Positions 2,125 through 27,170 of a stretch of DNA of 29,240 bases are shown here, piece by piece. The stretch lies in UHGV virus genome UHGV-0275034. One strand, 5' to 3'. Numbering within the stretch: the first letter of the stretch is position 1; each line of letters opens with the position of its first letter. The translations under genes and the position numbers were made by a program. The DNA is from a virus. The notes below the pieces were generated by a model. That model had not been told where the DNA came from and did no database searches. It worked only from the letters and a program-made list of their open reading frames with translations.

Positions 2125-2297
2125 GACGACAGCGACGAAGTATCACCGACATCATCTGCGAAAACTGCAAATACCTTCCAACGAAACGCTCCAGAAATAA
2201 ACGCAAGCCAATCCCAAAAGAATCTGACGTAAAAACCTTCAACTACACGGCTCACCTGTGGGATATCCGGTGGCTAAGACATCGTGCGAGGAAATGA
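2121..2297 (+). CDS. ninE: NinE-family small protein (58 aa; could be labelled NinD in some annotations)
   Basis: Below the ORF-track cutoff; translated by hand as [58 protein letters not shown]; ATG overlaps the ninB stop. Confidence 0.6.
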
Positions 2298-2683
2298 CAA
2301 TGGATTATTCACAGTTAAGTGATTTTGAAATTAACGTGGCGGTATTCGAAGCCATTCATAACGGATCACCGGATTACAAAGAAGGTGAGAATGGCGCGAT
2401 GGTGTTTATCTCATTTGAGGGAGACATTGTAAACGGAGACGCAGTTGAAGTAGAGGTTGAGCGCGGATCCTTTAACCCATGCGCAAACCCAGCAGACGCA
2501 TGGCCGATTATCACTGAAAACAACATCAGCATAATTTTAGACAATCCCTCAATGCCGTGCGCTACAGACAACGCAAGGGACTTGTTTGATGATGCCGGAC
2601 CGAATGTTGGTGTCGCATATGACAATCCACTCCGTGCCGCCATGATTGTCTTTCTCATGATGCAGGACGCCAATAATGCTTAG
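2294..2683 (+). CDS. Hypothetical acidic nin-region protein (about 129 aa)
   Basis: Start set at ATG 2294, which overlaps the NinE stop (ATGA), rather than the upstream in-frame ATG 2258 that lies inside NinE; no family recognised. Confidence 0.5.
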
Positions 2684-2852
2684 CCCATCCCAATCCCTTC
2701 AATACCAGAAAGAAAGCGTCGAGCGGGCTTTAACGTGCGCTAACTGCGGTCAGAAGCTGCATGTGCTGGAAGTTCACGTGTGTGAGCACTGCTGCGCAGA
2801 ACTGATGAGCGATCCGAATAGCTCAATGTACGAGGAAGAAGACGATGAATGA
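2676..2852 (+). CDS. ninF: NinF (58 aa, Cys-rich)
   Basis: Below the ORF-track cutoff; translated by hand as [58 protein letters not shown]; matches my recollection of lambda NinF. Confidence 0.7.
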   Translation: MLSPSQSLQYQKESVERALTCANCGQKLHVLEVHVCEHCCAELMSDPNSSMYEEEDDE

Positions 2853-3567
2853 GTTAATAAATGGCAATGCCATCAAAATGACAAGCATTGAAATCGCTGA
2901 GTTGGTGGGTAAGCGTCATGACAATGTGAAACGTACCATCGAAACGCTGGCTAAGAATGGTGTTATCCGGCTTCCTCAAATTGAGGATTGTGGAAGAATC
3001 AATGGGTTAGGCTTAAATCAAAGTTTTTGTGTGTATGCATTCGAAGGCGAACAAGGAAAGCGAGACAGTATTGTCGTTGTAGCCCAGTTGTCGCCGGAAT
3101 TCACCGCTCGTCTTGTTGACCGTTGGCGAGAGCTTGAAGAAACTGCGGTTAATATCCCCAAAACGCTACCAGAAGCGTTGCGCCTTGCTGCTGATCTTGC
3201 TGAGCAGAAAATGCAACTGGAAAACCAGCTCGCAATTGCCGCACCTAAAGTTGAGTTTGCCGATCGCGTTGGCGAGGCCAGCGGAATTTTGATTGGAAAC
3301 TATGCAAAGGTTGTTGGAATTGGTCCAAACAAACTGTTTGCGTGGATGCGCGATCACAAAATCCTTATTGCTTCAGGTTCCCGGCGCAATGTGCCAATGC
3401 AGGAATATATGGATCGCGGCTATTTCACAGTGAAAGAAACAGCGGTCAACACAAATCACGGAATACAGATATCGTTCACCACAAAAATCACCGGGCGTGG
3501 TCAACAGTGGCTGACCAGAAAGCTGCTCGATAACGGAATGCTGAAAGTAACAGGGGAGGCTGCTTAA
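2845..3567 (+). CDS. Rha-family phage regulatory protein with C-terminal KilA-C/ANT domain (antirepressor-like)
   Basis: N-terminal region has the Rha signature (TSIEIAELVGKRHDNV); C-terminal half resembles the ANT/KilA-C antirepressor domain. Confidence 0.65.
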   Translation: MNELINGNAIKMTSIEIAELVGKRHDNVKRTIETLAKNGVIRLPQIEDCGRINGLGLNQSFCVYAFEGEQGKRDSIVVVAQLSPEFTARLVDRWRELEETAVNIPKTLPEALRLAADLAEQKMQLENQLAIAAPKVEFADRVGEASGILIGNYAKVVGIGPNKLFAWMRDHKILIASGSRRNVPMQEYMDRGYFTVKETAVNTNHGIQISFTTKITGRGQQWLTRKLLDNGMLKVTGEAA

Positions 3568-3857
3568 TGGCTAACCTACGCAAAGAAGCGCGCGGAAGAG
3601 AATGCCAGGTACGTATTTACGGCGTATGCAATGGCAATCCTGAAACCACAGTTCTGGCACATTACCGGATGGCTGGAATTTGCGGAACGGGAATGAAGCC
3701 TGACGACCTGATCGGCGCATGGGCTTGTAGTGACTGCCACGCGGAGATCGACCGACGCACCCGGATTCTCGACAACAAAGACGCCAGACTTTACCACCTC
3801 GAAGGCGTGATCAGGACGCAGGCGATACTGCTGAAGGAGGGGAAGATTAAGTCATGA
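3567..3857 (+). CDS. ybcO: YbcO-like putative nuclease (DUF1364 family)
   Basis: 96-aa product with the Cys/His pattern RGRECQVRIYGVCNGNPETTVLAH ... CSDCHAEIDRR that I recall from DLP12 YbcO; start overlaps the upstream stop (TAATG). Confidence 0.65.
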   Translation: MANLRKEARGRECQVRIYGVCNGNPETTVLAHYRMAGICGTGMKPDDLIGAWACSDCHAEIDRRTRILDNKDARLYHLEGVIRTQAILLKEGKIKS

Positions 3858-4378
3858 ACGGTAAAAGATATCCAACACAAAAAGAAATCAATGAATTGTA
3901 TGAATATAATAGCGAAACAGGTTTGTTTATATACAAGAGAAGAGAAAGTGTAAGAGAGTGCTGGAATTCAACATATGCCGGTAAGATTGCTGGTTCTATA
4001 GATGAAAAAGGATACGTTCGTATATCTGTAAATAAAAAAGTTTGTCGAGCTCATAGAATCGCATGGATATCCTTTTATGGAAGTGAACCTGATGGGGAAA
4101 TTGACCACATAAATGGAGTTAAAAGCGATAACAGAATATGCAATTTGCGCGTTGTAGATGATAAACAGAACTCAAGGAACAGAAAAAAGCCTATTAATAA
4201 TCGCTCTGGAGTAATGGGGGTTGCCTACTATAAGAAGAATAAAAAGTGGGGCGCATATATAAACAGTGATAATAAAAAGATATTTCTTGGATTATACGAT
4301 GACATATCTCTAGCCGTTAATGCCAGAAAATTGGCGGAATCACGATTGGGGTATCACCATAATCATGGGAGAGGATAA
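3854..4378 (+). CDS. HNH homing endonuclease with AP2-type DNA-binding domain
   Basis: HNH motif region (IDHINGVKSDNRICNLR ... NSRN) followed by an AP2-like segment (SGVMGVAYYKKNKKWGAYI); gene is markedly AT-rich relative to its neighbours. Confidence 0.75.
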   Translation: MNGKRYPTQKEINELYEYNSETGLFIYKRRESVRECWNSTYAGKIAGSIDEKGYVRISVNKKVCRAHRIAWISFYGSEPDGEIDHINGVKSDNRICNLRVVDDKQNSRNRKKPINNRSGVMGVAYYKKNKKWGAYINSDNKKIFLGLYDDISLAVNARKLAESRLGYHHNHGRG

Positions 4379-4741
4379 ATGGCAGAATACAGATTCACAC
4401 TTCCGTACCCACCGTCGCTGAACACCTACTGGCGAAGACGGGGAAGCCAATACTACATCAGCGATAAAGGCCAGAAATACCGAAAAGACGTTCAGCAAAT
4501 CATCCGCCAACTTAAGTTAGACATTTTCACCAAATCACGACTCCGCATCAAAGTCATCGCAGACGTTCCAGACTCCCGCCGCCGCGACCTCGACAACATC
4601 CTGAAAGGTTTACTCGACTCCCTTATCCACGCCGGATTTGCGGAAGACGACGAGCAATTCGATGACATTCGCGTAATTCGTGGTGTGAAAGTACCAGGTG
4701 GAAGGCTTGGAATAAAAATCACCGAACTGGAGAACGCATGA
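4379..4741 (+). CDS. rusA: RusA Holliday junction resolvase
   Basis: 120-aa product with the RusA pattern (LPYPPSLNTYW ... RRRDLDN ... GGRL) as I recall it from E. coli RusA. Confidence 0.85.
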   Translation: MAEYRFTLPYPPSLNTYWRRRGSQYYISDKGQKYRKDVQQIIRQLKLDIFTKSRLRIKVIADVPDSRRRDLDNILKGLLDSLIHAGFAEDDEQFDDIRVIRGVKVPGGRLGIKITELENA

Positions 4742-4926: not shown

Positions 4927-5411
4927 GCATAAGAGAACTAAACCTCACCAAAGAGCAGCACGATTGGCTGAATGGCTGGCTTGAACTGTGGGGAGCATGG
5001 GTTTATTCAGGTCGTCTTGAAAAGCGCATGAGCAGCGTAATAGCGAAGTTCATGGAGAGCGTAGAGCCGGGAAGAGTTATGACAAGGCCAATGTGCAATG
5101 ATGATGATGGAATGTTGATTTCTCAGGTCGTCGATTCCGTCATGTACATTGACAAGAAAGCCTTTGGCATCCTCCTCAGCTACTACGCTCATGGATCTTC
5201 CAAGCACGCCATTGCATCTTACTATCATCGTGTCGCAAGACCTCGCAAGATGTTATGCCGTGGCGGCGGGCGCATTCAAAAACCATCGCTCGCAACCTGT
5301 CGCCGGGAAGTTGACGAAATCCTCAATGCCTCGTTGTTTATGATTTATCCGGTTCTGGATAGTGCGTTTAAAAACCGGAAACGTGTAGATAAAATTAAAC
5401 ATGTAGCATAG
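4923..5411 (+). CDS. Q: Late-gene antiterminator Q (non-lambda Q type, 162 aa)
   Basis: Position directly after ninH and before the lysis genes; translation resembles the Q antiterminator family found in 21/82-like lambdoid phages and DLP12 QuuD. Confidence 0.7.
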   Translation: MSIRELNLTKEQHDWLNGWLELWGAWVYSGRLEKRMSSVIAKFMESVEPGRVMTRPMCNDDDGMLISQVVDSVMYIDKKAFGILLSYYAHGSSKHAIASYYHRVARPRKMLCRGGGRIQKPSLATCRREVDEILNASLFMIYPVLDSAFKNRKRVDKIKHVA

Positions 5412-5417
5412 AACGTG

Positions 5418-5446
5418 TTGACATCATTGAGCAAATGAGCAACACT
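5418..5446 (+). promoter_or_regulatory. Candidate late promoter pR' (-35 TTGACA at 5418..5423; weak -10 about 17 bp downstream)
   Basis: Consensus -35 hexamer immediately after the Q stop, where lambdoid late promoters sit; the -10 hexamer is poor (AACACT), so the call is tentative. Confidence 0.35.
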
Positions 5447-5454
5447 ATTCGCAT

Positions 5455-5503
5455 AAGCTGCCGTTAGTGACTCTTAAGTTGCAACGGTGGCTTTTTTTGT
5501 TTG
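5455..5503 (+). terminator. Candidate tR'-like intrinsic terminator
   Basis: Imperfect roughly 10-bp stem (AGCTGCCGTT / AACGGTGGCT, two G-U pairs) followed by TTTTTTTGTTTG. Confidence 0.45.
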
Positions 5504-5522
5504 CACAACAGGTAAGAGCATT
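5504..5522. repeat. 19-bp direct repeat CACAACAGGTAAGAGCATT, copy 1
   Basis: Exact 19/19 match to 5755..5773; the same motif follows tR' in phage lambda as I recall. Confidence 0.8.
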
Positions 5523-5754
5523 CTCCCTTATGGGGCTTGGCTTAAATGCACCGAGTGCTCTTATCGTTGTGGCAGCACAACGATAGTTTTCGTCAGAGTT
5601 GGCGACTTTGCGGTTTTTTAGAAACTGACCACAAAGATAAATGCAAACGATGATGTTGTTCTGATGGCGGCGTAATAGCCTGTAAGTCAGCAAGGTCTTC
5701 CGACTCCTTGTAAACAAATTCGGCGCACTGGCCCGGTGTGATTAATAATGGGCA

Positions 5755-5773
5755 CACAACAGGTAAGAGCATT
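5755..5773. repeat. 19-bp direct repeat CACAACAGGTAAGAGCATT, copy 2
   Basis: Exact match to 5504..5522; the two copies bracket about 232 bp with no convincing ORF. Confidence 0.8.
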
Positions 5774-6285
5774 GCGCGCCTGACGAGCCCATGAGGGACG
5801 AAACGCATTAGCGTCGTGCGGAGTATCCCCAGCCGGGGAATAACTGGATACCAGGGGAGACAACCCTAAGCGCATTTACGAGTGTGTTTAGGGCGTGGGT
5901 CGGCAATGACTCCCTGTGCAGCCGACATCTGGCCCGGCAACATACAGTGCTCCTTCCGTTGTGCTGAATTAAGCGAATACCGGAAGCAGAATCGGGTCAA
6001 CAAATGCGTACAGGCGTCATCGCCTCCCAGTAACAGCACACCCAAACTGAGCCGTAGCCACTGGCTATCCTGAACTCATCAGTGATAGTTACGCTGCGGC
6101 CTTCTATACATGACCTTCGTGAAAGCGGGTGGCAAGAGGCTGCGCTAACAACCTCCTGCCGTTTTGCCCGTGCATATCGGTCACGAACAAATCTGATTAC
6201 TAAACACAGTAGCCTGGATTTGTTCTATCAGTAATCGACCTTATTCCTAATTAAATAGAGCAAATCCCCTTATTGGGGGTAAGAC

Positions 6286-6609
6286 ATGAAGATGCCAGAA
6301 AAACATGACCTGTTAGCCGCCATTCTCGCGGCAAAGGAACAAGGCATCGGGGCAATCCTTGCGTTTGCAATGGCGTACCTTCGCGGCAGATATAATGGCG
6401 GTGCGTTTACAAAAACAGTAATCGACGCAACGATGTGCGCCATTATCGCCTGGTTCATTCGTGACCTTCTCGACTTCGCCGGACTAAGTAGCAATCTCGC
6501 TTATATAACGAGCGTGTTCATCGGCTACATCGGTACTGACTCGATTGGTTCGCTTATCAAACGCTTCGCTGCTAAAAAAGCCGGAGTAGAAGATGGTGGA
6601 AATCAATAA
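6286..6609 (+). CDS. S: Holin, lambda S type (dual start M1-K2-M3 giving antiholin S107 and holin S105)
   Basis: 107-aa product that matches lambda S as I remember it, including the MKM dual-start motif; the upstream sdi region also looks lambda-like. Confidence 0.9.
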
Positions 6610-7069: not shown

Positions 7070-7503
7070 GCAGAGTCACCGCGATTATCTCCGCTCTGGT
7101 TATCTGCATCATCGTCTGCCTGTCATGGGCTGTTAATCATTACCGTGATAATGCCATCGCCTACAAAGAGCAGCGCGATAAAGCCAGGTACATCATCGCT
7201 GACATGCAGAAGCGTCAACGTGATGTAGCAGAACTTGACGCCAGATACACAAAGGAGCTTGCTGATGCTAATGCGACTATCGAAAGTCTCCGTGCTGATG
7301 TTTCTGCTGGTCGTAAGCGCCTGCAAGTCGCCGCCACCTGTGCAAAGTCAACGACCGGAGCCAGCAGCATGGGCGATGGAGAAAGTCCAAGACTTACAGC
7401 AGATGCTGAACTCAATTATTACCGTCTCCGAAGTGGAATCGACAAGATAACCGCGCAGGTTAACTACCTGCAGGAATACATCAGGACGCAATGCCTTCGA
7501 TGA
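7066..7503 (+). CDS. Rz: Rz i-spanin
   Basis: N-terminal TM segment ([31 protein letters not shown]) matches lambda Rz; C-terminal part diverges; contains an embedded +1-frame lipoprotein ORF. Confidence 0.85.
7265..7450 (+). CDS. Rz1: Rz1 o-spanin (outer-membrane lipoprotein embedded in Rz)
   Basis: +1-frame ORF wholly inside Rz; signal peptide and lipobox ([20 protein letters not shown]) followed by a Pro-rich segment; the start may be ATG 7265 or 7271. Confidence 0.7.
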
Positions 7504-7677
7504 TAGCGATAATTTTACTCATCATCCTTCACATCTGGCTCTGTAGACAGGATGGTGATCACTTCTGGAGTGAATCCAGATTAAACATCTCATTGCTGAT
7601 GCTTGATATTGAGCATCTTGCGCGCGGTAAGGGGCTGCGTTGAGATAAGAGCCAGTCATTACAAATACCAGGATTTA

Positions 7678-7703
7678 GCCTCGCATTCGCGGGGCTTTTT
7701 ATT
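7678..7703 (+). terminator. Intrinsic terminator after the lysis cassette
   Basis: 7-bp stem GCCTCGC/GCGGGGC (one G-U pair), loop ATTC, then TTTTTATT. Confidence 0.6.
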
Positions 7704-7807
7704 GCCATTACAAAAGCCATTCCCTACAGAGTGGCTTTGATAATGGCTTATACCCTACACGGGATAACTTAACTGATATCCCTTTTAACGGATAAACGGA
7801 GCCAACA

Positions 7808-8050
7808 ATGGCAGAGATTATTCCCATGACTGAAGAACAGAAATTCCAGTTAGAGATTTACAAACTGGTCATGAACCAGAACGCAGCCGCAGAAGAAGCA
7901 TTTCAATTCATTGGCACTGACGAGCTGAAGCTTGAGCTATTCAAAATTCACTTCCAGTCAGGCGGCGCTAATTCAGATATCACGACCCGCACTATCGAAG
8001 CGGTGCGTAAATCGAAGGAAGCGTTAGACCTGTTCACTACCGGAGCATAA
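7808..8050 (+). CDS. Hypothetical protein upstream of terminase (80 aa)
   Basis: ORF with ACGGAG about 8 nt upstream of the ATG, tightly packed against the small terminase gene. Confidence 0.5.
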   Translation: MAEIIPMTEEQKFQLEIYKLVMNQNAAAEEAFQFIGTDELKLELFKIHFQSGGANSDITTRTIEAVRKSKEALDLFTTGA

Positions 8051-8052
8051 AC

Positions 8053-8493
8053 ATGGCGCGCCCAACAAAGTATCAAGAGGCGTACGCCGAACAGGCACGC
8101 AAACTGTGCTTGCTGGGCTACACCGATGCAGAGCTTGCTGATTTCTTCGAAGTCAGTGAGTCAACTATTAACAAGTGGAAGCTTGATTATCCTAAGTTTT
8201 CGGAGTCCATAAAAAAGGGTAAGGCCGTCGCTGATGCAGAAGTTAGTGACCGTCTTTATCAACGCGCTATGGGCTTCGTGGCTCCAGACATCGATATTCG
8301 TGTTATTGAAAACAGAATTGTCGAAACTCCGCTTGAGAAGTATTACCCGCCTGATACAACAGCTGCCATCTTCTGGCTTAAGAACCGACAGAAGGATAAA
8401 TGGCGCGACAAGGTTGATCACGAATTAACAGGCAAAGACGGCGGCGCAATCCAGATTGAAACATCACCGATGAGCACTCTATTCGGAAAATGA
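8053..8493 (+). CDS. Terminase small subunit
   Basis: 146-aa product with an HTH-like N-terminus, immediately upstream of and overlapping the large terminase gene; resembles Sf6/P22-type small terminase families. Confidence 0.75.
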   Translation: MARPTKYQEAYAEQARKLCLLGYTDAELADFFEVSESTINKWKLDYPKFSESIKKGKAVADAEVSDRLYQRAMGFVAPDIDIRVIENRIVETPLEKYYPPDTTAAIFWLKNRQKDKWRDKVDHELTGKDGGAIQIETSPMSTLFGK

Positions 8494-16324: not shown

Positions 16325-17277
16325 TGGCTGATTCTAATCTCAATGAGCCGGTAATCATCCAGGCTACACGGCTAGACACATCAGTCCTTCCACGCAATAT
16401 CTTCTCGCAGTCATATCTGCTGTACGTTATCGCACAGGGTACTGATGTTGGTAACGTGGCGAACAAGGCCAACGAAGCAGGGAAGGGGGCTTATGATGCA
16501 CAGGTGAAGAATGATGAGCAGGATGTCACCCTTGCAGACCATGAATCCAGAATTGAAGCTGCTGAAGCAACTCTCATCAATCATGAACATAGAATCGCAG
16601 CAGCGGAAAGCACTCTTGCAGATCATGAAACAAGGATTACGGCTGCTGAAACAGAGCTGGCTGATCACGAGACGCGAATTGCTGCCAATGAATCTGAGTT
16701 AGCAAACCATGATGCGCGCATAACTCAGAATACAACCGATATCGACGCACTTGATACCAGGCTCACAGCGGCAGAAGGAAGTATTTCGACGCTACAGAGC
16801 ACAGTTGGTGATCACTCAACAAGAATATCTGCGCTTGAGTATGCCACCACGCGCAAGAAATCAGAGGTTGTTTACTCAGGAGTATCTGTAACCATCCCGA
16901 CAGCGCCGACTAACCTTGTTAGCCTGCTGAAAACGCTCACGCCGTCATCCGGCACGTTGTCACCATTCTTCGACACCGTTAACAACAAGATGGTTGTGTT
17001 CAACGAGAGCAAAACCTTGTTCTTCAAGCTGTCGATTGTCGGGACGTGGCCCAGCGGAACCACCAACAGGTCAATGCAGCTAACCTTTTCCGGCTCTGTT
17101 CCTGACACGTTGGTCAGCAGTCGTAATGCGGCGACAACAACCGACAACATCCTGTTAGCTACGTTCTTCAGTGTGGATAAAGACGGCTTTCTTGCCACAA
17201 ATGGCAGCACGTTAACCATTCAGTCAAATGGTGCGGCGTTTACTGCCACAACCATCAAAATCATTGCGGAGCAGTGA
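16324..17277 (+). CDS. Tail needle (P22 gp26 homologue) with repeat-rich coiled coil and extended C-terminal domain
   Basis: Start at ATG 16324 ([18 protein letters not shown]..., overlapping the gp10 stop as TAATG) matches the P22 gp26 N-terminus; the ORF-track start at 16222 lies inside gp10. Confidence 0.85.
16531..16740 (+). repeat. Five tandem 42-nt (14-aa) imperfect repeats inside the tail-needle gene
   Basis: Peptide units [14 protein letters not shown] / [14 protein letters not shown] / [14 protein letters not shown] / [14 protein letters not shown] / [14 protein letters not shown] read directly from the translation. Confidence 0.8.
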
Positions 17278-17744
17278 TGGAAATAAAGCTCATCGATAAT
17301 CCGGTGAAGCTTGCAGAATTCCTCAACAACCCGGCAAACACGGGAAATATCGTAGACAGTGGAGACAAATACTACATCAAGCCTGATGCGGTATATCTCG
17401 GCATCTACGAAGGATTAGTGCTGGCTGGAGTTCATGAAGTGCGTAACTTCTGGCATAGCGTTGTTGAATGCCATGCGGTGTATGACCCCGGATTCCGTGG
17501 AGAATATGCACTGCAAGGGCATCGATTATTCTGCAAATGGCTTCTCGAAAACTCACCATTCCTTAACAGCATCACCATGGTTCCTGACACCACCAAATAC
17601 GGACGGGCAATTATCCGTTTGCTTGGCGCTACCCGTGTTGGTCACCTTGATGATGCGTACATGAGTAACGGAAAACCGGTTGGAATCACCCTCTATCAAT
17701 TACCTCGTTCGAAATATGAGGAGCTATTAAATGTTAGTACTTAG
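17277..17744 (+). CDS. Protein at the P22 gp14 position (155 aa), function unassigned
   Basis: ATG 17277 overlaps the needle stop; gene order corresponds to gene 14 of P22-like phages; I cannot confirm homology from the sequence alone. Confidence 0.5.
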   Translation: MEIKLIDNPVKLAEFLNNPANTGNIVDSGDKYYIKPDAVYLGIYEGLVLAGVHEVRNFWHSVVECHAVYDPGFRGEYALQGHRLFCKWLLENSPFLNSITMVPDTTKYGRAIIRLLGATRVGHLDDAYMSNGKPVGITLYQLPRSKYEELLNVST

Positions 17745-18402: not shown

Positions 18403-19875
18403 TTGGCTACATGGCAACAGGCTGGTAATTCAGGCGCGCTTCTTGCCGGGTTAGGCGGCATGAACTCCAACGCTCCAAGAGCAAGTGATGCAGACGCCAC
18501 GCTTGCATACATTCGACAGAATAACGAGATGGAGCGTTCAGGACGTAATAACGTTGGCTTGCAGGCTTTGCAGGGCATTTCATCTGTCATGGATATGTAT
18601 AAGCAGATGGATCAGCAGAAGCGACAGCAAGAGTTTCAGCAGGCTTATGCTGATGCATATACATCTGGTGACCGCGATGCAATGCGAAAACTGGCATCAC
18701 AGTATCCTGAGCAGTTTGACGCTGTAAGAAACGGCATGAAATTTGTCGATGAAGACCAGCGTTCCACTGTCGGCACACTGGCAGCAAGTGCCAGACTGGC
18801 AGCTTCATCTCCAGAAGCCATGATGTCATGGTTGCAGAACAACTCATCTGAGCTTACTCGTGCCGGAGTAGACCCTCTGGATGTGGCGAAAATGTATCAG
18901 CAAAATCCACAAGGTTTCACAGAGTTTGTTGATCACCTTGGAATGGCTGCTCTTGGTCCGATTGATTACTTCAATGTTCAGGACAAGATGGCTGGTCGTG
19001 AAATTGACCGAGGAAGGCTGGCAGAGACAATCCGCAGCAATCAGGCTGGAGAGGCGCTTCAGGCGAGAGGGCAGGATATTAGCCGAGCAAATGCGTTAAC
19101 GTCAGCATATGCACCAACAGCTGCAATGCAGAATTATAATCAGTACGCGCAAATGTTAAAGGCGGATCCCGATGGTGCAGCGGCATTTGCGGCAGCGGCG
19201 GGAATTAATCCCAATGCTAAGAAATTACTTAAGGTTGAAACCAATCCTGATGGCTCGGTAACTAAGTATTACACCGATGGCAGCGAGGAAGCCGGAAAAC
19301 TAAACCAACCTATATCTGGTGATGGCATTAAACCAATTAGCTTGCCACAAGCGCAAAGCATCATAGATAAGGCTAATGAGGGTTCCAAGAAGGCGGCAGG
19401 ATTTGCTTTGCGATTAAAAGATTCAATGGACTCAATGAATCAGCTTAGTAAAAGCATTGACCCTAAGCGAGTTGCATTAATAAATCGCTCTCTTGGTGAT
19501 GGGACTATTGCAAATTTAAGCCTATCACCAGCGGAGCAGCAATATATGGTAAATGCGAGAGACGCCTTGTATGCAATTTTGCGCCCAGAAACAGGTGCAG
19601 CAATTACTCTGCCAGAGATGCAGGAGTATTCCAAAATGTACCTGCCTCAGCCCGGTGATTCCAAGGCTGCTACTGAAACAAAAATGCGAAAAATGCAGGG
19701 CCAATATAACTCATTACGTGGTCAGTCTGGTCGCGTTTATGATGCTTTGGTGGTTTCAAGTGCTGCAAATAGTCAACAACAGAGCAATAGCCAACAACCG
19801 GCAAATACCCAACAGCAGCAGAGTCAATCCGGATCATATACCTCAAAATCAGGCATTCAATTTACGGTGGAATGA
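18403..19875 (+). CDS. Ejection protein, P22 gp20 homologue
   Basis: 490-aa product in the gp7-gp20-gp16 order; the start may be an alternative codon a few nt upstream, closer to GGAGGTG at 18381. Confidence 0.7.
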
Positions 19876-21719
19876 TGAAAGTAACTGCAAACGGTAAGAC
19901 ATTTACCTTCCCTGATGGTACGAGCACGGAAGATATTGGCACCGCCATTGATGAGTATTTTGCTGGTCAGGCTGTTCAGCAACAAACAGTTAATCAGGCC
20001 AATAATGAACCAGCACGTGAAGAACCATCATTGATGCAACAAGCTGGCGATTGGCTCACAGGTGCTCAAAGTGCAGGGCAAATTGCAGAACAGGCTGGTC
20101 GTGGTCTGGTAAACATACCATTTGACGTATTGCAGGGTGGCGCAAGTCTGATTAATGCAATCAGCCAGGGGCTTGGTGGCCCCAAGGTTTTGGATGATGT
20201 TTATCGCCCTGTCGATCGACCGACAGACCCTTATGCGCAAGCTGGAGAAACAATTGGCGGGTATTTAGTTCCAGGAGTTGGAACGGCAGGAAGCATGGCT
20301 ATTGGATCACTGGCAGAAGCCGCAAACCAGAAAGGTGATTTCGCGCAAAATGCAGCCATAAATGCCGGAGTTAACCTTGCCGCTCAGGGTGTTCTTTCCG
20401 CAGCAGCAAAGGGAATAGGGCGTGGAATAACGGCTATAAAAGGCGATATCGCGCCAGAAGTAGCGAAAAAAATTGCCACCTCAGAATCAATGGGTGTGAC
20501 GCCAATGACATCTGATGTCATCCCACCGAAAAATGCTTTCACTCGTGGCCTTACTCAGGATGCCGAGGGGGCTTTGCTCGGGACAGGCTCAAAGCGAGCT
20601 GAGCAATATGCAACGCGTAGTAAGCTGGTAAGTAATTATTTTGACCGTTTTGGTGAGTACAACCCTGATGATGTGGTGAAATCTCTGACCACCACGTTAA
20701 GGGGGCGGAAGGATGCCGCTGGCGCTGTTATCAATGACGTCACCAATAAAATGGGTAATGCCTCAGTTGATACCACAAATACCATGAATGCTCTGAATAC
20801 AGCGATCGCAAGACAGGAACGGCTTGGGACATCTGCCAATCAAAGCCTGCTTACATCCTTGCGTAACCTACGTGAAGAATTAGCAAACCCTGCAACTGAT
20901 TTGGATGTTACGTTTGATCTCTTGCGTCAGCACAGAACAGCATTTAGATCTAATGTTCAGGGAGATGCTATGGTCTTCCCCAACCAGGCAAAAGCAGCTA
21001 CCAATATGGTAGAGAATGCAATGTCAAAAGACCTTCGTAACGCAGTTGCTAAAAACCTCGGTGCATCAGACGCAGCAAAATACCTTAAAGCAAATTCCGA
21101 TTATGCAAACGTTTATAATAAGGTGCTTAATAAAAACATTGCTAACAAGCTCAACAAGGCAAGCAGTGAAGCCAGTCCTGAACTTATAAATACCGTTGTA
21201 TTAAGCAGAAAACCATCTGACGTGAAACGAATCTGGAGCGCATTGGATGATAAAGGGAAAGATGCTATGCGTGCAGCTTACGTCAGCAAAATAGCGGAAA
21301 AATCCGGTGACTCTCCAGCCAAGTTCATCACTGAAGTTAATAAGCTGAAATCTCAGTCAGGCGGTGAAATTTACAACACTATTTTTTCTGGAAAGCACAT
21401 GAAAGAGCTTGATGCTCTTCATGAAGTTCTACAGCAAACAGCAAGGTCAGACACCGCAAATGTAGTAACTCAGACGGGGCAATCGCAAGCCAACAGGATA
21501 AGGACGATTGGCGCAACTGCGACTCTTGGCGTATCAATGGGGCTTGAGGCTGGTTTCGGTGCAATGATGCGCTTGTATGAGTCCAAAGCAGCAAGGAATG
21601 CTCTCTTACGTTTGGCAAACACCAAAGCAGGAACGCCAGCCTATGAAAGAGCGCTAAATAATGCTGCAAATGCGATACGCCCTATACTTTCAAGCCAAAT
21701 TACAGCAGAACAGCAATAA
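19872..21719 (+). CDS. Ejection protein, P22 gp16 homologue
   Basis: 615-aa product, close to the roughly 609 aa I recall for P22 gp16; start overlaps the gp20 stop (ATGA). Confidence 0.75.
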
Positions 21720-23309: not shown

Positions 23310-24746
23310 ATGACAGACATTACAGCCAATGTTGTAGTCAGCATGCCTTCGCAACTCTTCACTATGGCTCGTTCTTTTAAAGCCGTAGCTAATGGAAAGA
23401 TTTATATCGGTAAAATTGACACTGACCCAGTAAATCCTGAAAACCAGATTCAGGTTTATGTAGAGAACGAAGACGGCTCTCATGTTCCCGTTTCGCAACC
23501 AATCATCATTAACGCCGCTGGTTACCCTGTATATAACGGACAGATTGCCAAATTCGTAACTGAGCAAGGCCATTCTATGGCTGTTTATGATGCGTATGGT
23601 GCACAGCAGTTCAAATTCCCAAATGTGCTGAAGTATGACCCGGATCAGTTAAGAGTAGTTTTGACTGGACAGTCTGGTGATGGACTTAAGAATTTTTATG
23701 CTGGCTCAGGATGGACTGGTTCAGATGCAGCTGGTGACAATATTTATAACAATGAAACTATCATATATAAAAATGCTACACGACAGAGATTCTCCATACC
23801 AGAAACACCAATTCCAGATCCCATTATTTGGCTGGAAAAAATTAGTTCTGCAACTAGGGATGACGGCATCAAACGATGGGATCAGGGGGTAATTTATAAC
23901 TCTTTGCGCAAGGTGTCAGGAAGTGCATATACATGCACAACTACAAGTGTTGCTAAGCATGAGGGAGGGAATGGGCATTCAATTGGTCACCACATGCGTG
24001 GAGAATCAAGAAATCCGCAAGCCGAAACATGGGGGGGGTGGTCATATGGTGCAGTATTAGGAGATGCAGTGCAGAATGGAGCGATTAGCACTATTGCACA
24101 TGAATTTAATCTGAATAATCGAGGTCCCGATAAAGGATGGATGGAGAATGCACTGCAAGGATCTGTAAGAGGGTTGGTATGTGTAACTCAGGATAAAAGC
24201 AATCCAGTAACACAGATGATTACCATCGGAAGAGGGAGTGAAGCTCCAAATGGTTATATCTGGACAGGAATGTTGTTTAGAGGTAATTCTATTTCCACTC
24301 CAACAGAGGAACTAACCGAGGTAGGTAATGGCGAATACATCAGACTTGAGGGATCTCTATCATCTGGAGCTGCAAACGGCATTAGATTTAGAACAAATTA
24401 TTTTAGGAGTGGAATTTCATTTTCTGAAGCTAGATTTTCAAACAACTGCGCAATTTTGATGGGCGACAATCAACGAATTACGGTAGGAACGGGCCCGGCA
24501 AATACAACACATTTGAGTTTCAACAGGGCTGAGAACTGGGCTAACTTCAACAACTTAAGAATACGACTTAATGGCAATCAAGTTATTTCAGAGAGGAGGA
24601 CGGGATGGGGATCGCCAACCGGCACCGTATCCCGAGCAGCATTTAACTCTGGAACAATAACTCACGAAGATTTAGCAAAGGTAGTTGCAGCATTAATTCA
24701 GGACTTACATGCTTCAACCGGGCATGGATTAATTGGTTTAACTTAA
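23310..24746 (+). CDS. Tailspike / receptor-binding protein (P22 gp9-like N-terminal head-binding domain, divergent short distal domain)
   Basis: First roughly 115 aa closely parallel the P22 gp9 N-terminus ([11 protein letters not shown] ... [13 protein letters not shown][13 protein letters not shown] ... LKYDPDQ); the remainder is unrelated and AT-richer; total 478 aa. Confidence 0.8.
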
Positions 24747-24758
24747 CAGGACAATAAA

Positions 24759-24944
24759 ATGGATAAGCAAACTATTCAAAATATCATGCAGTTTATGCTT
24801 CGCGTAAATCTTAGCGGTCATGAAGTTCCTGCTTTTAATTCTTCAATGAATGCATTACAGGCTGAATTAGATCGCGAAAATGACCAGCCACTCCAGCGAG
24901 TACTAAATGCTGCTCACAATGAACCTGTTACGGAGAATGATTAA
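24759..24944 (+). CDS. Small hypothetical protein (61 aa) downstream of tailspike
   Basis: ORF with a weak RBS, tightly linked to the next small gene. Confidence 0.4.
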   Translation: MDKQTIQNIMQFMLRVNLSGHEVPAFNSSMNALQAELDRENDQPLQRVLNAAHNEPVTEND

Positions 24945-24945
24945 A

Positions 24946-25152
24946 ATGAAAACAGAAAGCGGTGCTTTCAAATTTGACGGTGGAGAGGTTAAAGGAATTA
25001 ACAGCATTGCCATTATTGAGGTGCGCGGTAACGGGTGGGGCGCTGGTTTTTATTTTAAGCCAAATACTGCCGTTAAAGTCGATGGTAATAAGCCTGATCT
25101 GAACGAGTTTCGTGATTCCTGCGCATTGTCGGTAATGACTCCAACTTACTGA
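24946..25152 (+). CDS. Small hypothetical protein (68 aa) downstream of tailspike
   Basis: ATG 24946 with GGAGA 9 nt upstream; begins 2 nt after the stop of the preceding small ORF. Confidence 0.45.
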
Positions 25153-25307
25153 TAGTGTTTTATATTCAGATAATGCCCGATGACTTTGTCATGCAGCTCC
25201 ACCGATTTTGAGAACGACAGCGACTTCCGTCCCAGCCGTGCACCAGGCTGGTTCAGAATCATGTTCTGCTGATTTTGTCCGGCGGCAGAACGCAATTTGC
25301 CAGAGTG

Positions 25308-25433
25308 ATGGGAAGGGCATTAATCACGGATGATGGTGAAGCGATCGAAGTGGAGGCGGCGGAAGAGGTGGAGGTGATGTGGCGTGTTACGTACTTCATC
25401 AACAGCGCGCTGCAGGATGGCGTGGTGGTGTGA
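25308..25433 (+). pseudogene. Coding-like fragment resembling the 3' end of a protein gene (41 codons from an internal ATG)
   Basis: Open frame ending ...VMWRVTYFINSALQDGVVV*, with no plausible full-length gene upstream (in-frame stop at 25209); a degenerate second copy lies at 25532..25678. Confidence 0.25.
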
Positions 25434-25688
25434 TGGGTGGCATTACCCCACCTTTTCATCAATCCAGTCCGCCCACCACTGCAGCATGTCTCTGCATTTA
25501 TCGTAGTTGATGCATCACTATCACCCTGTAATGGCTTATTACTGGTTTGCATACAGGTAGGCATGAACAGATACCTACACATGAAGATGGAACTAGTCCG
25601 GATGCGATATTTTTGGTGATCACGTACATCATCAACGAAGCGCGTTATGTTGAGTTTTATGACTGCCAAGTAATGTGAAAATTGCGAT

Positions 25689-25712
25689 GCGTACCAAATT
25701 GTGTACCAAATT
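25689..25712. repeat. Tandem arm-type repeats GCGTACCAAATT / GTGTACCAAATT (putative integrase arm sites)
   Basis: Two adjacent 12-bp copies; three more related copies lie at 25939..25985, just upstream of int. Confidence 0.6.
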
Positions 25713-25938
25713 AAAATCATAAACCATGAAACCCTTACTCATGGCTGTTCTCAGGCTGGGTGCGTGTAATCGTGAAAGAGGAAGGTAGGTTGTTTATCTG
25801 TGTCTGTCATTGTCTAGCATTGTCCACTGTAGTTAATTAACTGTCTGTTATAACTCGAAAAACAACCATTTTTTCACCTGAGTATGTCTACGAACGTCAA
25901 ATATAGTTGTTTACTGTGCGCTGTTGTCCATGTGATAT

Positions 25939-25985
25939 TGTGTACCAGATGTGTACCAAACTATTATTTCTGAGCGTACCAAATA
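25939..25985. repeat. Three arm-type repeats (TGTGTACCAGA, TGTGTACCAAA, GCGTACCAAAT) immediately upstream of int
   Basis: Same GTACCAaA core as the copies at 25689..25712; together they bracket about 230 bp. Confidence 0.6.
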
Positions 25986-25991
25986 TTATTT

Positions 25992-27170
25992 ATGGCTATA
26001 AGCGACACAAAACTGCGTACTATTTATGGTAAACCATATTCGGGCCCACAAGAAGTGGCTGATGCCGATGGCCTCAGCGTACGAATTTCACCGAAGGGGG
26101 TCATCCAGTTCCAGTACCGCTATCGCTGGCATGGCAAGCCTAATCGACTTGGGCTTGGTCGATACCCATCCCTGTCTTTGAAGGATGCCAGACAGATCAC
26201 TGCTGACTTGCGAAAGCTCTATTTCTCAGGAACGGATCCACGCACCTATTTTGAAGAGAAGGTGGAGAACTCCATGACGGTCGCCCAGTGTCTCGACTAC
26301 TGGTTCGACAACTACGTCTCTACAACTCTCAGAGAAAAGACCCAGGCACTTTACCGATCAACGGTTATGAAGCGCATGCATGACGCCTTTCCTAATCGTC
26401 CGGCATCTTCTATCACGGTTAAGCAATGGGTTGACCTGCTTACCGAAGAAGAAAGAGATAATCCACGCCGAGCAAGGCAGGTGCTAAGTCAACTAAGATC
26501 AGCAATAAGTTGGTGCATGCGGCGTCAGTTGATAGATAGTTGCGCAATTATGAGCATCCAACCAAGGGACTTCGGCTCCCGCGCTGAGGTAGGGGATCGG
26601 GTACTGTCGTATCACGAACTGGCTAAGATTTGGCTTGCTATTGAAAGAAGCCGTGCGTCTACGTCAAATAAGCTCCTTCATCAGATGCTTATGCTGTGGG
26701 GGGCGAGGCTCTCAGAGCTTAGGCTGGCAACAAAGACAGAATTTGACCTGCTGGACAACGTATGGACCGTACCGAAAGAGCATAGCAAGATGGGTAATGT
26801 TATCCGCCGTCCAATCTTCGAACAAATTAAGCCTTTTCTCGAAAAAGCCATGACAACGTACAATGATGTTCTTTTCCCTGGAGAAGACATAAACAAACCG
26901 ATCAGCATCGCTGCAGCCAACCGATTCGTAAATAGAATAAGGGGAGGGATGGATCTGGGTTACTGGCGAACACATGATTTCAGAAGAACGCTTGTTACAC
27001 GTCTGTCCGAGATGAATGTCGAGCCTCATGTTACTGAGCGAATGCTCGGTCATGAACTTGGCGGGATAATGTCAGTATACAATAAACACGACTGGATAGA
27101 GGCTCAGCGCAAAGCGTATGAGCTTCACGCTGATAAATTGTTCTGGCACATCAGGAGCATTTCTGATTAA
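25992..27170 (+). CDS. int: Tyrosine site-specific integrase (P4-type)
   Basis: 392-aa product with catalytic-domain signatures (RLSELRL, HDFRRT, LGHELGG ... SVYNKH); lies adjacent to the arm-type repeats. Confidence 0.9.
   Translation: MAISDTKLRTIYGKPYSGPQEVADADGLSVRISPKGVIQFQYRYRWHGKPNRLGLGRYPSLSLKDARQITADLRKLYFSGTDPRTYFEEKVENSMTVAQCLDYWFDNYVSTTLREKTQALYRSTVMKRMHDAFPNRPASSITVKQWVDLLTEEERDNPRRARQVLSQLRSAISWCMRRQLIDSCAIMSIQPRDFGSRAEVGDRVLSYHELAKIWLAIERSRASTSNKLLHQMLMLWGARLSELRLATKTEFDLLDNVWTVPKEHSKMGNVIRRPIFEQIKPFLEKAMTTYNDVLFPGEDINKPISIAAANRFVNRIRGGMDLGYWRTHDFRRTLVTRLSEMNVEPHVTERMLGHELGGIMSVYNKHDWIEAQRKAYELHADKLFWHIRSISD

Follow-up and report, generated by a model that had tools for sequence, protein, structure and literature searches.

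A free-standing HNH-AP2 endonuclease gene at the ybcO-rusA junction of temperate Escherichia coli phages: a probable homing element

Homing by free-standing homing endonuclease genes (HEGs), or 'intronless homing', has been proven experimentally for the seg and mob genes of the virulent phage T4, the seg genes encoding GIY-YIG enzymes. In I-HmuI of the Bacillus phage SPO1, a monomeric HNH_3 enzyme which nicks one strand and is encoded in a group I intron, an N-terminal DNA-binding sheet and an HNH core are followed by a helical, helix-turn-helix C-terminal DNA-binding region. The combination of an HNH with an AP2 domain (PF13392 plus PF00847; PHROG 99), found in phages, cyanobacteria and protists, has been described as an HEG family (PMC10448857, citing earlier work), most described members of which are from virulent phages. 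Here we describe a gene of this type in the UHGV virus genome UHGV-0275034, a stretch of 29,240 bp referred to below as the window. The gene (3854..4378, plus strand; ATG start, 525 bp, 174 aa, 35.4% GC), referred to as the HEG, stands free between a ybcO-type gene and the resolvase gene rusA. Taken as a whole, it is probably a recently spreading free-standing HEG that targets the empty ybcO-rusA junction. This assessment blends two others: it is very likely that a free-standing HNH-AP2 endonuclease gene has been inserted at this junction, and there is a somewhat better than even chance, judged from sequence comparisons, that it actively homes in the way proposed below.

The locus shares features with each of the described systems. 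The order of the two domains is that of the HNH-AP2 family, many homologues of which, at 37-49% identity to the HEG protein, carry both PF13392 and PF00847, and 3,557 phage records encode relatives; unlike these, the HEG protein has an AP2 region too diverged for the Pfam cut-off, and it is encoded among the nin genes of a P22-like/lambdoid phage which is temperate. With I-HmuI it has in common its length (both proteins are of 174 aa) and the succession of an N-terminal DNA-binding sheet and an HNH core, whereas the free-standing gene and the AP2-type C-terminus set it apart. Like the T4 genes, to which the comparison draws in part on PMC10448857, the HEG lies between two conserved undisrupted genes, is present or absent in close relatives, and is found in a carrier allele that differs from the target near the insertion point. 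It differs from the T4 genes in being known from sequence alone, and in an apparent co-transferred tract that is very short and lies almost wholly on one side, with 21-45 bp to the right of the insert and about 0 bp to its left.

In a preliminary description of this DNA the gene had been read as a selfish homing-endonuclease insertion, and alignment with insert-free relatives agrees with this. Phage records were searched with 1.6 kb around the HEG (1,601 bp), of which empty records span 1,076 bp. The locus matched 260 phage records at 96-98% identity, including HK97, HK022, HK620, mEpX1 and CUS-3, and far from all sharing the gene, none of them carried it (0/260); the two matching pieces were contiguous, the gap being 525 bp exactly in each record. 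A match to the locus was seen in 996 of 5,426 complete E. coli genomes: 32 with an intact HEG, one with a truncated copy and about 960 with the empty junction, which puts the HEG at a frequency of about 3% of the genomes with this type of junction. When the HEG alone was used as the query, the same 33 of the 5,426 genomes were returned, with a single copy each, always at the ybcO-rusA site and none on plasmids. The polymorphism is a clean one, the 525 bp being either present or absent at a single site. The insert DNA alone, in a sensitive DNA search, found no match among 50,697 phage records, and hence no donor was identified. Two individual genomes may be mentioned here. In the E. coli record CP054407 the locus query matched at two places. 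The truncated copy, in E. coli 1008S19 (NZ_CP147050.1; positions 2248-3438 of the extracted locus, L002), lacks about 80 bp at its 5' end and has IS1A just upstream; IS1A follows directly after cII, the replication and nin genes are deleted, and this decaying prophage has kept the recoded rusA start described below.

Over the 120 empty and 19 filled alleles compared, the junction was exact and reproducible. In the empty state the sequence is ...GATTAAG(T/C)C ATGAACG AATATCAGTTTGTG CTTCC..., where the ybcO stop and the rusA start overlap in ATGA, and in the filled state it is ...GATTAAG(T/C)C ATGAACG GTAAAAG...(HEG)...GGGAGAGGATAA ATGGCAGAATACAGATTCACA CTTCC.... The seven nucleotides ATGAACG (3854..3860, plus strand), common to the HEG start and to the rusA start of the empty allele in the alignment with HK97 and the 120 empty and 19 filled alleles, form the left junction. 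The insertion point is precisely the ATGA in which, in lambdoid and P22-like phages of the HK97/HK022/HK620 type, the stop of ybcO and the start of rusA overlap.

On the right, the insertion is accompanied by a recoded start of rusA. Nucleotides 4-21 of rusA (4382..4399, plus strand) read GCAGAATACAGATTCACA in the filled and AACGAATATCAGTTTGTG in the empty allele, a difference of 11 substitutions which cause the changes N2A, Q5R and V7T plus two synonymous ones, while the remaining rusA is about 97% identical. All 11 substitutions were fixed in 19 of 19 filled alleles and the block was present in none of the 120 empty ones, where the filled-type base was absent at 9 of the 11 positions and occurred in 1% and 4% at rusA nt 20 and 21. 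The same association held elsewhere: the recoded start was found on 18 IMG/VR contigs, all 18 with the HEG (in one case cut by the contig end), and in 33 complete E. coli genomes, exactly the 33 carriers, the other genomes matching from nt 22 onward only. The possibility that the recoded start is an ordinary rusA allele was rejected, as it was never found without the HEG. Three further rusA variants, at nt 27, 33 and 40 (4405, 4411 and 4418, within 4405..4418, plus strand), were fixed in filled alleles and present in 5-13% of empty ones, and probably mark the right-hand limit of the co-transferred tract. Past rusA nt 45 there was no association with the allele, and on the left there was none even at position -2. 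Going by these alignments, the recoded rusA block is part of the mobile element and presumably serves as a target-site immunity patch. In the window, no copy of the uninterrupted junction was found with up to 3 mismatches allowed, the recognition site being taken here from the junction only.

Nucleotide diversity (pi) was compared between the 19 filled and the 120 empty alleles for a left flank of 287 bp and a right flank from rusA nt 46 to ninH. For the HEG itself pi was 0.0073 (19 copies), about 6 times below the immediate flanks, where it was 0.042 in both filled and empty alleles on the left, and 0.056 in filled versus 0.072 in empty alleles on the right. In windows of 40 bp the ratio of filled to empty diversity was at least 1 already at -47..-8, and 0.9 at +41..+80. 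The 19 carriers had 18 distinct left-flank haplotypes, some the same as those of empty alleles, and they also varied in the presence or absence of roi before ybcO and in having a different Q allele after ninH. The segregating sites of the HEG were 12 synonymous and 6 non-synonymous (pN/pS 0.12, binomial p 2e-5), and the open reading frames (ORFs) of all the copies compared were intact; by this measure the HEG is under purifying selection and not decaying. Apparently, then, the element is young and its flanks are old and diverse, linkage between them disappearing within tens of bases, as repeated break-induced copying would leave them, and frequent ordinary recombination is a weaker alternative for the sharp loss of linkage at the edges. 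The exact HEG protein was found on 339 contigs, nearly all from E. coli. The next closest proteins were at most 49% identical, with no relative between 49% and 98% identity, and in a set with one genome for each of 185,579 species there was no close relative, the best match (41%) being in a metagenome-assembled genome of Kiritimatiellae. As far as these comparisons go, the protein is an isolated lineage. Within ybcO, a hypervariable patch was seen at window positions 3707-3786, 68-147 bp left of the junction (pi 0.07-0.15 versus 0.01-0.04 elsewhere in the gene), and HEG carriers and empty alleles did not differ in its variability.

The same data could be explained, with a rather low probability, by passive transfer, that is, by a single illegitimate insertion from a low-GC donor, together with 21 nt from the start of a rusA-like gene of that donor, and subsequent spread as ordinary homologous recombination shuffled the ybcO-rusA-ninH module among lambdoid phages, the nuclease not driving the transfer. 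This explanation would lead one to expect only one site and only one lineage, as is the case here with copies 98.7-100% identical, and the low frequency of the HEG, the copy truncated by IS1 in a decaying prophage and the mosaic joints, which HEG-less phages also show where ybcO starts and where ninH meets Q, fit it as well. However, purifying selection at a pN/pS of 0.12 implies that the protein does something, and the flanks of carriers reach the diversity of empty alleles already at about 10 bp from the left edge and about 45 bp from the right edge of an element that is itself about 6 times less diverse. Since the flanks are diverse up to the edges of the element, many crossovers would be needed exactly at these edges, and break-initiated repair is a simpler explanation of them than random recombination.

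The mosaic joints are sharp and lie at window positions ~3565 (ybcO start) and ~4927 (ninH/Q boundary), where both carriers and HEG-less phages switch to unrelated upstream genes or Q alleles. They are general features of these phages. It had been suggested that the gene marks a recombination hotspot in the nin region; this is supported in part, as exchange is concentrated at the HEG edges, with linkage lost within tens of bp of them, but the large joints at ~3565 and ~4927 are not peculiar to carriers.

The composition of the HEG is foreign. As had been described from the sequence, its GC content is clearly below that of its surroundings: 35.4% versus 49.1% in the left and 49.5% in the right 1 kb, with 54.3% in the ybcO and 49.6% in the rusA gene, and a third-position GC (GC3) of 29.7% versus 55-60% in the neighbouring genes. 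In a sliding-window check the HEG was the lowest-GC 525-bp stretch of the window, the global minimum starting at 3842; 0.07% of all 525-bp windows were as low, and with a mean of 47.1% and a standard deviation (SD) of 3.1% the HEG lies about 3.7 SD under the mean. The description of its start and stop codons as abutting both neighbours also proved accurate. The left neighbour (3567..3857, plus strand; 96 aa) is a ybcO/DUF1364-type putative nuclease gene (Pfam YbcO PF07102, E 7.6e-44; phrog_131), the sequence of which is the same as in empty alleles right up to the junction, and its TGA (3855-3857) shares the ATGA overlap with the HEG ATG (3854-3856). The right neighbour is the rusA Holliday-junction resolvase gene (4379..4741, plus strand; 120 aa; RusA PF05866, E 2e-16; phrog_34), the ATG of which (4379) follows directly 3' of the HEG TAA (4376-4378). 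The length of rusA in the carrier is that of empty alleles, and ybcO and rusA are both full length.

Two sequences in this region resemble Shine-Dalgarno sites. The run AAGGAGGGG in the 3' end of ybcO (3834..3842, plus strand) may serve as a ribosome-binding site; the same bases stand before the rusA ATG in the 120 empty alleles and before the HEG in this window. In the last HEG codons, 4 nt 5' of the new rusA ATG, there is the GAGG-containing sequence GGGAGAGGA (4367..4375, plus strand), identical in 19 of 19 filled alleles, which is a candidate for the replacement ribosome-binding site of rusA. From this reading of the sequence, the HEG occupies the former initiation region of rusA, including its first 7 nt, and the HEG 3' end supplies rusA with a new ATG and a putative new ribosome-binding site, so that the nin operon would be read through undisturbed. 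The genes after rusA are NinH and then the antiterminator Q, and a Roi/Ant-type antirepressor gene precedes ybcO. A promoter and terminator scan found no plus-strand promoter-like or terminator-like site inside the insert, and the HEG is therefore most simply seen as one more cistron of the nin operon. The idea that the HEG has its own promoter was dropped on the same grounds, the lone promoter-like match inside the insert being on the minus strand (4320-4291) and within chance expectation. Rfam and tRNA scans of the whole window, introns included, gave no match, which ruled out an intron-borne or tRNA-associated element.

The HEG protein, already annotated as an HNH endonuclease in RefSeq, matched Pfam HNH_3 (PF13392) with 60.6 bits (gathering cut-off 24.8 bits; E 1.1e-16) over residues 65-108, which correspond to profile positions 2-46 of 46, and PHROG 99 ('HNH endonuclease') with E 5e-63 over its full length. 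The HNH (beta-beta-alpha-metal) catalytic core, D84-N109, DHINGVKSDNRICNLRVVDDKQNSRN (4103..4180, plus strand), was assigned from PF13392, the I-HmuI alignment, homologue conservation and a structure model. The only solved relative found by sequence was I-HmuI (PDB 1U3E; phmmer E 0.0097), which a profile of 85 homologues matched at E 1.3e-7 via the N-terminal half. In the alignment D84, H85, N97 and N106 stand opposite D74, H75, N87 and N96 of I-HmuI, where the His acts as general base and the Asp and Asn residues as metal ligands. Among the 85 homologues H85, D92, N97 and N109 were invariant and D84, N87, N93 and N106 at least 90% conserved. The catalytic residues, the lack of which would have counted against the reading in the preliminary description, are present, and the core is intact in the alignment; the protein is a putative endonuclease.

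The second half of the 'HNH-AP2' label given there was upheld by the family profile and the predicted fold and not by the Pfam cut-off on the single sequence. Against Pfam AP2 (PF00847, cut-off 33.3 bits) the single protein scored 14.8-15.7 bits (E 0.02-0.04) over the first half of the model only, and the isolated C-terminal 70 residues also stayed under the cut-off; the assignment of an AP2-like DNA-binding domain at residues ~118-165 (4205..4348, plus strand) rests for this reason on the family profile and the fold. The profile of 85 homologues matched solved AP2 domains over its positions 115-165 (WRI1 7WQ5, 1.4e-10; TEM1 7ET4, 2.7e-6; ERF096, 0.004; AtERF1, 0.01), and PF00847 appears in the precomputed annotation of about one third of the listed homologues. 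The model that AlphaFold2 gave with the 85-homologue alignment (mean pLDDT 93) has an N-terminal sheet, then the beta-beta-alpha core (strands 82-85 and 98-101, helix 103-108), and a C-terminus of strands 123-126, 131-138 and 141-148 with a helix at 151-165 (pLDDT ~95). In a Foldseek search of the PDB with this model I-HmuI came top (E 4.4e-4, 111 columns, 28% identity), followed by the AP2 domains of TEM1, WRI1 and AtERF1 with an rmsd of ~1.2 A over 45-50 residues. An HNH-AP2 architecture of the protein is supported by these profile and model comparisons. NCBIfam had no family for the HEG protein or the ybcO protein.

On balance the sequences lean slightly to the reading that the HEG is now spreading in temperate lambdoid and P22-like E. 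coli phages, with the junction as its target and the 18-nt rusA recoding as its immunity patch. The HEG would be transcribed together with the delayed-early nin genes in lytic growth, and the enzyme would bind a ybcO-rusA junction without insert, in a co-infecting phage or a resident prophage, its I-HmuI-like N-terminal part and AP2 domain reading about 25-40 bp around ...AAGYCATGAACGAATATCAGTTTGTGCTTCC.... The HNH site would nick or cut near the junction, the candidate target lying around ...CATGAACGAATATCAGTTTGTG... of the empty allele; a nick may become a break at the replication fork, and phage or host recombination would repair the break with the HEG-carrying genome as template. The tract copied in this way would comprise the HEG, about 0 nt on its left and about 20-45 nt of rusA on its right. 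The carrier allele is proposed to be immune because its target site is split and the right half recoded, both of which are seen in the sequence.

Several points weigh against this reading. The HEG is rare, being present in about 3% of the E. coli genomes with this type of junction and in no isolated phage, which is low for an efficient drive element. If all copies come from one insertion, the linkage of the recoded block could be just that of the original insert and not the result of selection for immunity. Ordinary recombination, which is very frequent in lambdoid phages, could over time yield the sharp drop in linkage at the edges. Finally, there is the sub-threshold AP2 score of the single protein.

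An improbable but related explanation is that the nuclease is a weapon in competition, which cuts HEG-less phages or prophages at ybcO-rusA in co-infection and lowers their yield (marker exclusion), with homing as a side effect. It draws on the same sequence evidence of a site-specific nuclease and an immune carrier allele, and the junction that would be its target is widespread in prophages of E. coli, where about 1,000 genomes match it. Compared with the PADLOC defence library, the HEG protein gave a weak match to a 'homing endonuclease' model (E 1.2e-5), but matched no defined defence system. Moreover, the nin operon is repressed in the lysogen, as is established for lambdoid regulation, so that a lysogen would not be protected from superinfection. 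Such a role is compatible with homing and inseparable from it by sequence data. Very improbable is a domesticated, immobile accessory nuclease that would serve the DNA metabolism of the phage, for instance by helping YbcO or RusA to process recombination or replication intermediates, or that would act like the HNH protein gp74 of HK97: the gene does lie between two nuclease genes with translational links to both, and HNH proteins with housekeeping roles in phages exist (gp74, which assists the terminase; PMC10448857), but about 97% of near-identical modules and every isolated phage with the module do without the HEG, which makes it dispensable, it does not adjoin the terminase, and it has a foreign composition and the architecture of sequence-specific HEGs.

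The window is a P22-like phage genome, with NinB, NinX, a lambda-type holin, a tailspike with a P22 head-binding domain and then an integrase, and the annotation of the closest E. coli prophage includes a terminase, a portal protein and a P22-type capsid protein. At 23310-27170 the tailspike gene (only 478 aa, P22 head-binding domain) stands immediately before the integrase, and early-left genes on the minus strand come next; in this vegetative order, with attP intact, the window resembles a phage genome or an excised one and not an integrated prophage. Its first ORF (21-311) matches a Ren-like exclusion protein (phrog_142, E 2e-41). Upstream of ninB, ORFs of 106 and 122 aa (608-928 and 1374-1742), both of PHROG 343 (function unknown), lie in a region of 37-39% GC (low-GC stretch ~906-1639) and look duplicated or paralogous. 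The second lowest-GC region (~39%) is at 24638-26090, between tailspike and integrase; an ORF on the minus strand there (25259-25720, 153 aa) has no Pfam or PHROG match and lies where lysogenic-conversion or moron genes are typically found.

Other nuclease genes are found in the related prophages. The closest one, of E. coli GPEC172 (L003), has, between Q and holin, an HNH-AP2 paralogue of 44% identity (17037-17549) and a GIY-YIG gene between the lysis and terminase genes (19609-20094). The contig IMGVR_UViG_3300045988_022724 (L221), which also carries the HEG at the rusA site, has a second HNH-AP2 gene (3720-4271; 183 aa, 44% identical, 44.7% GC) inserted after Rz and before a Rha-like gene. 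Like the HEG, these paralogues have the HNH-AP2 architecture and are variable inserts between conserved late-region genes; unlike it, they have other insertion sites and a GC content of 41-45%, and they are absent from the window. The window gaps matching the two nuclease sites of the GPEC172 prophage, 5411-6286 and 7503-8053, contain short ORFs only and neither nuclease gene. In the first of them (875 bp, Q to holin), with GC up to 55%, there was no convincing ORF and no tRNA, and a terminator-like hairpin was seen at 5561-5586 (plus strand); relatives have at this position tRNA-Asn and tRNA-Thr (E. coli 1008S19) or the HNH gene (E. coli GPEC172). Together, the paralogues and the GIY-YIG gene indicate that free-standing nuclease genes are a regular variable component of these genomes.

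A literature search for the accession of this protein, or for homing endonuclease, rusA and lambdoid, found no paper on the element. The insertion is real, but as a selfish gene the HEG belongs to a familiar type and is unremarkable; with HNH-AP2 HEGs common in phages, the significance is modest. What is new is a base-exact definition of the element as the HEG plus the recoded 21-nt rusA start, a candidate target site present in the classic laboratory phages HK97, HK022 and HK620, and population evidence of a young, constrained element on many backgrounds. For annotation, the first seven rusA codons of carriers should be regarded as mobile element and not as ordinary rusA variation. Homing among temperate phages and prophages would be readily testable here and, if true, the HEG would be a model of homing into co-infecting phages and resident prophages, with co-conversion limited to an unusually short tract on one side.

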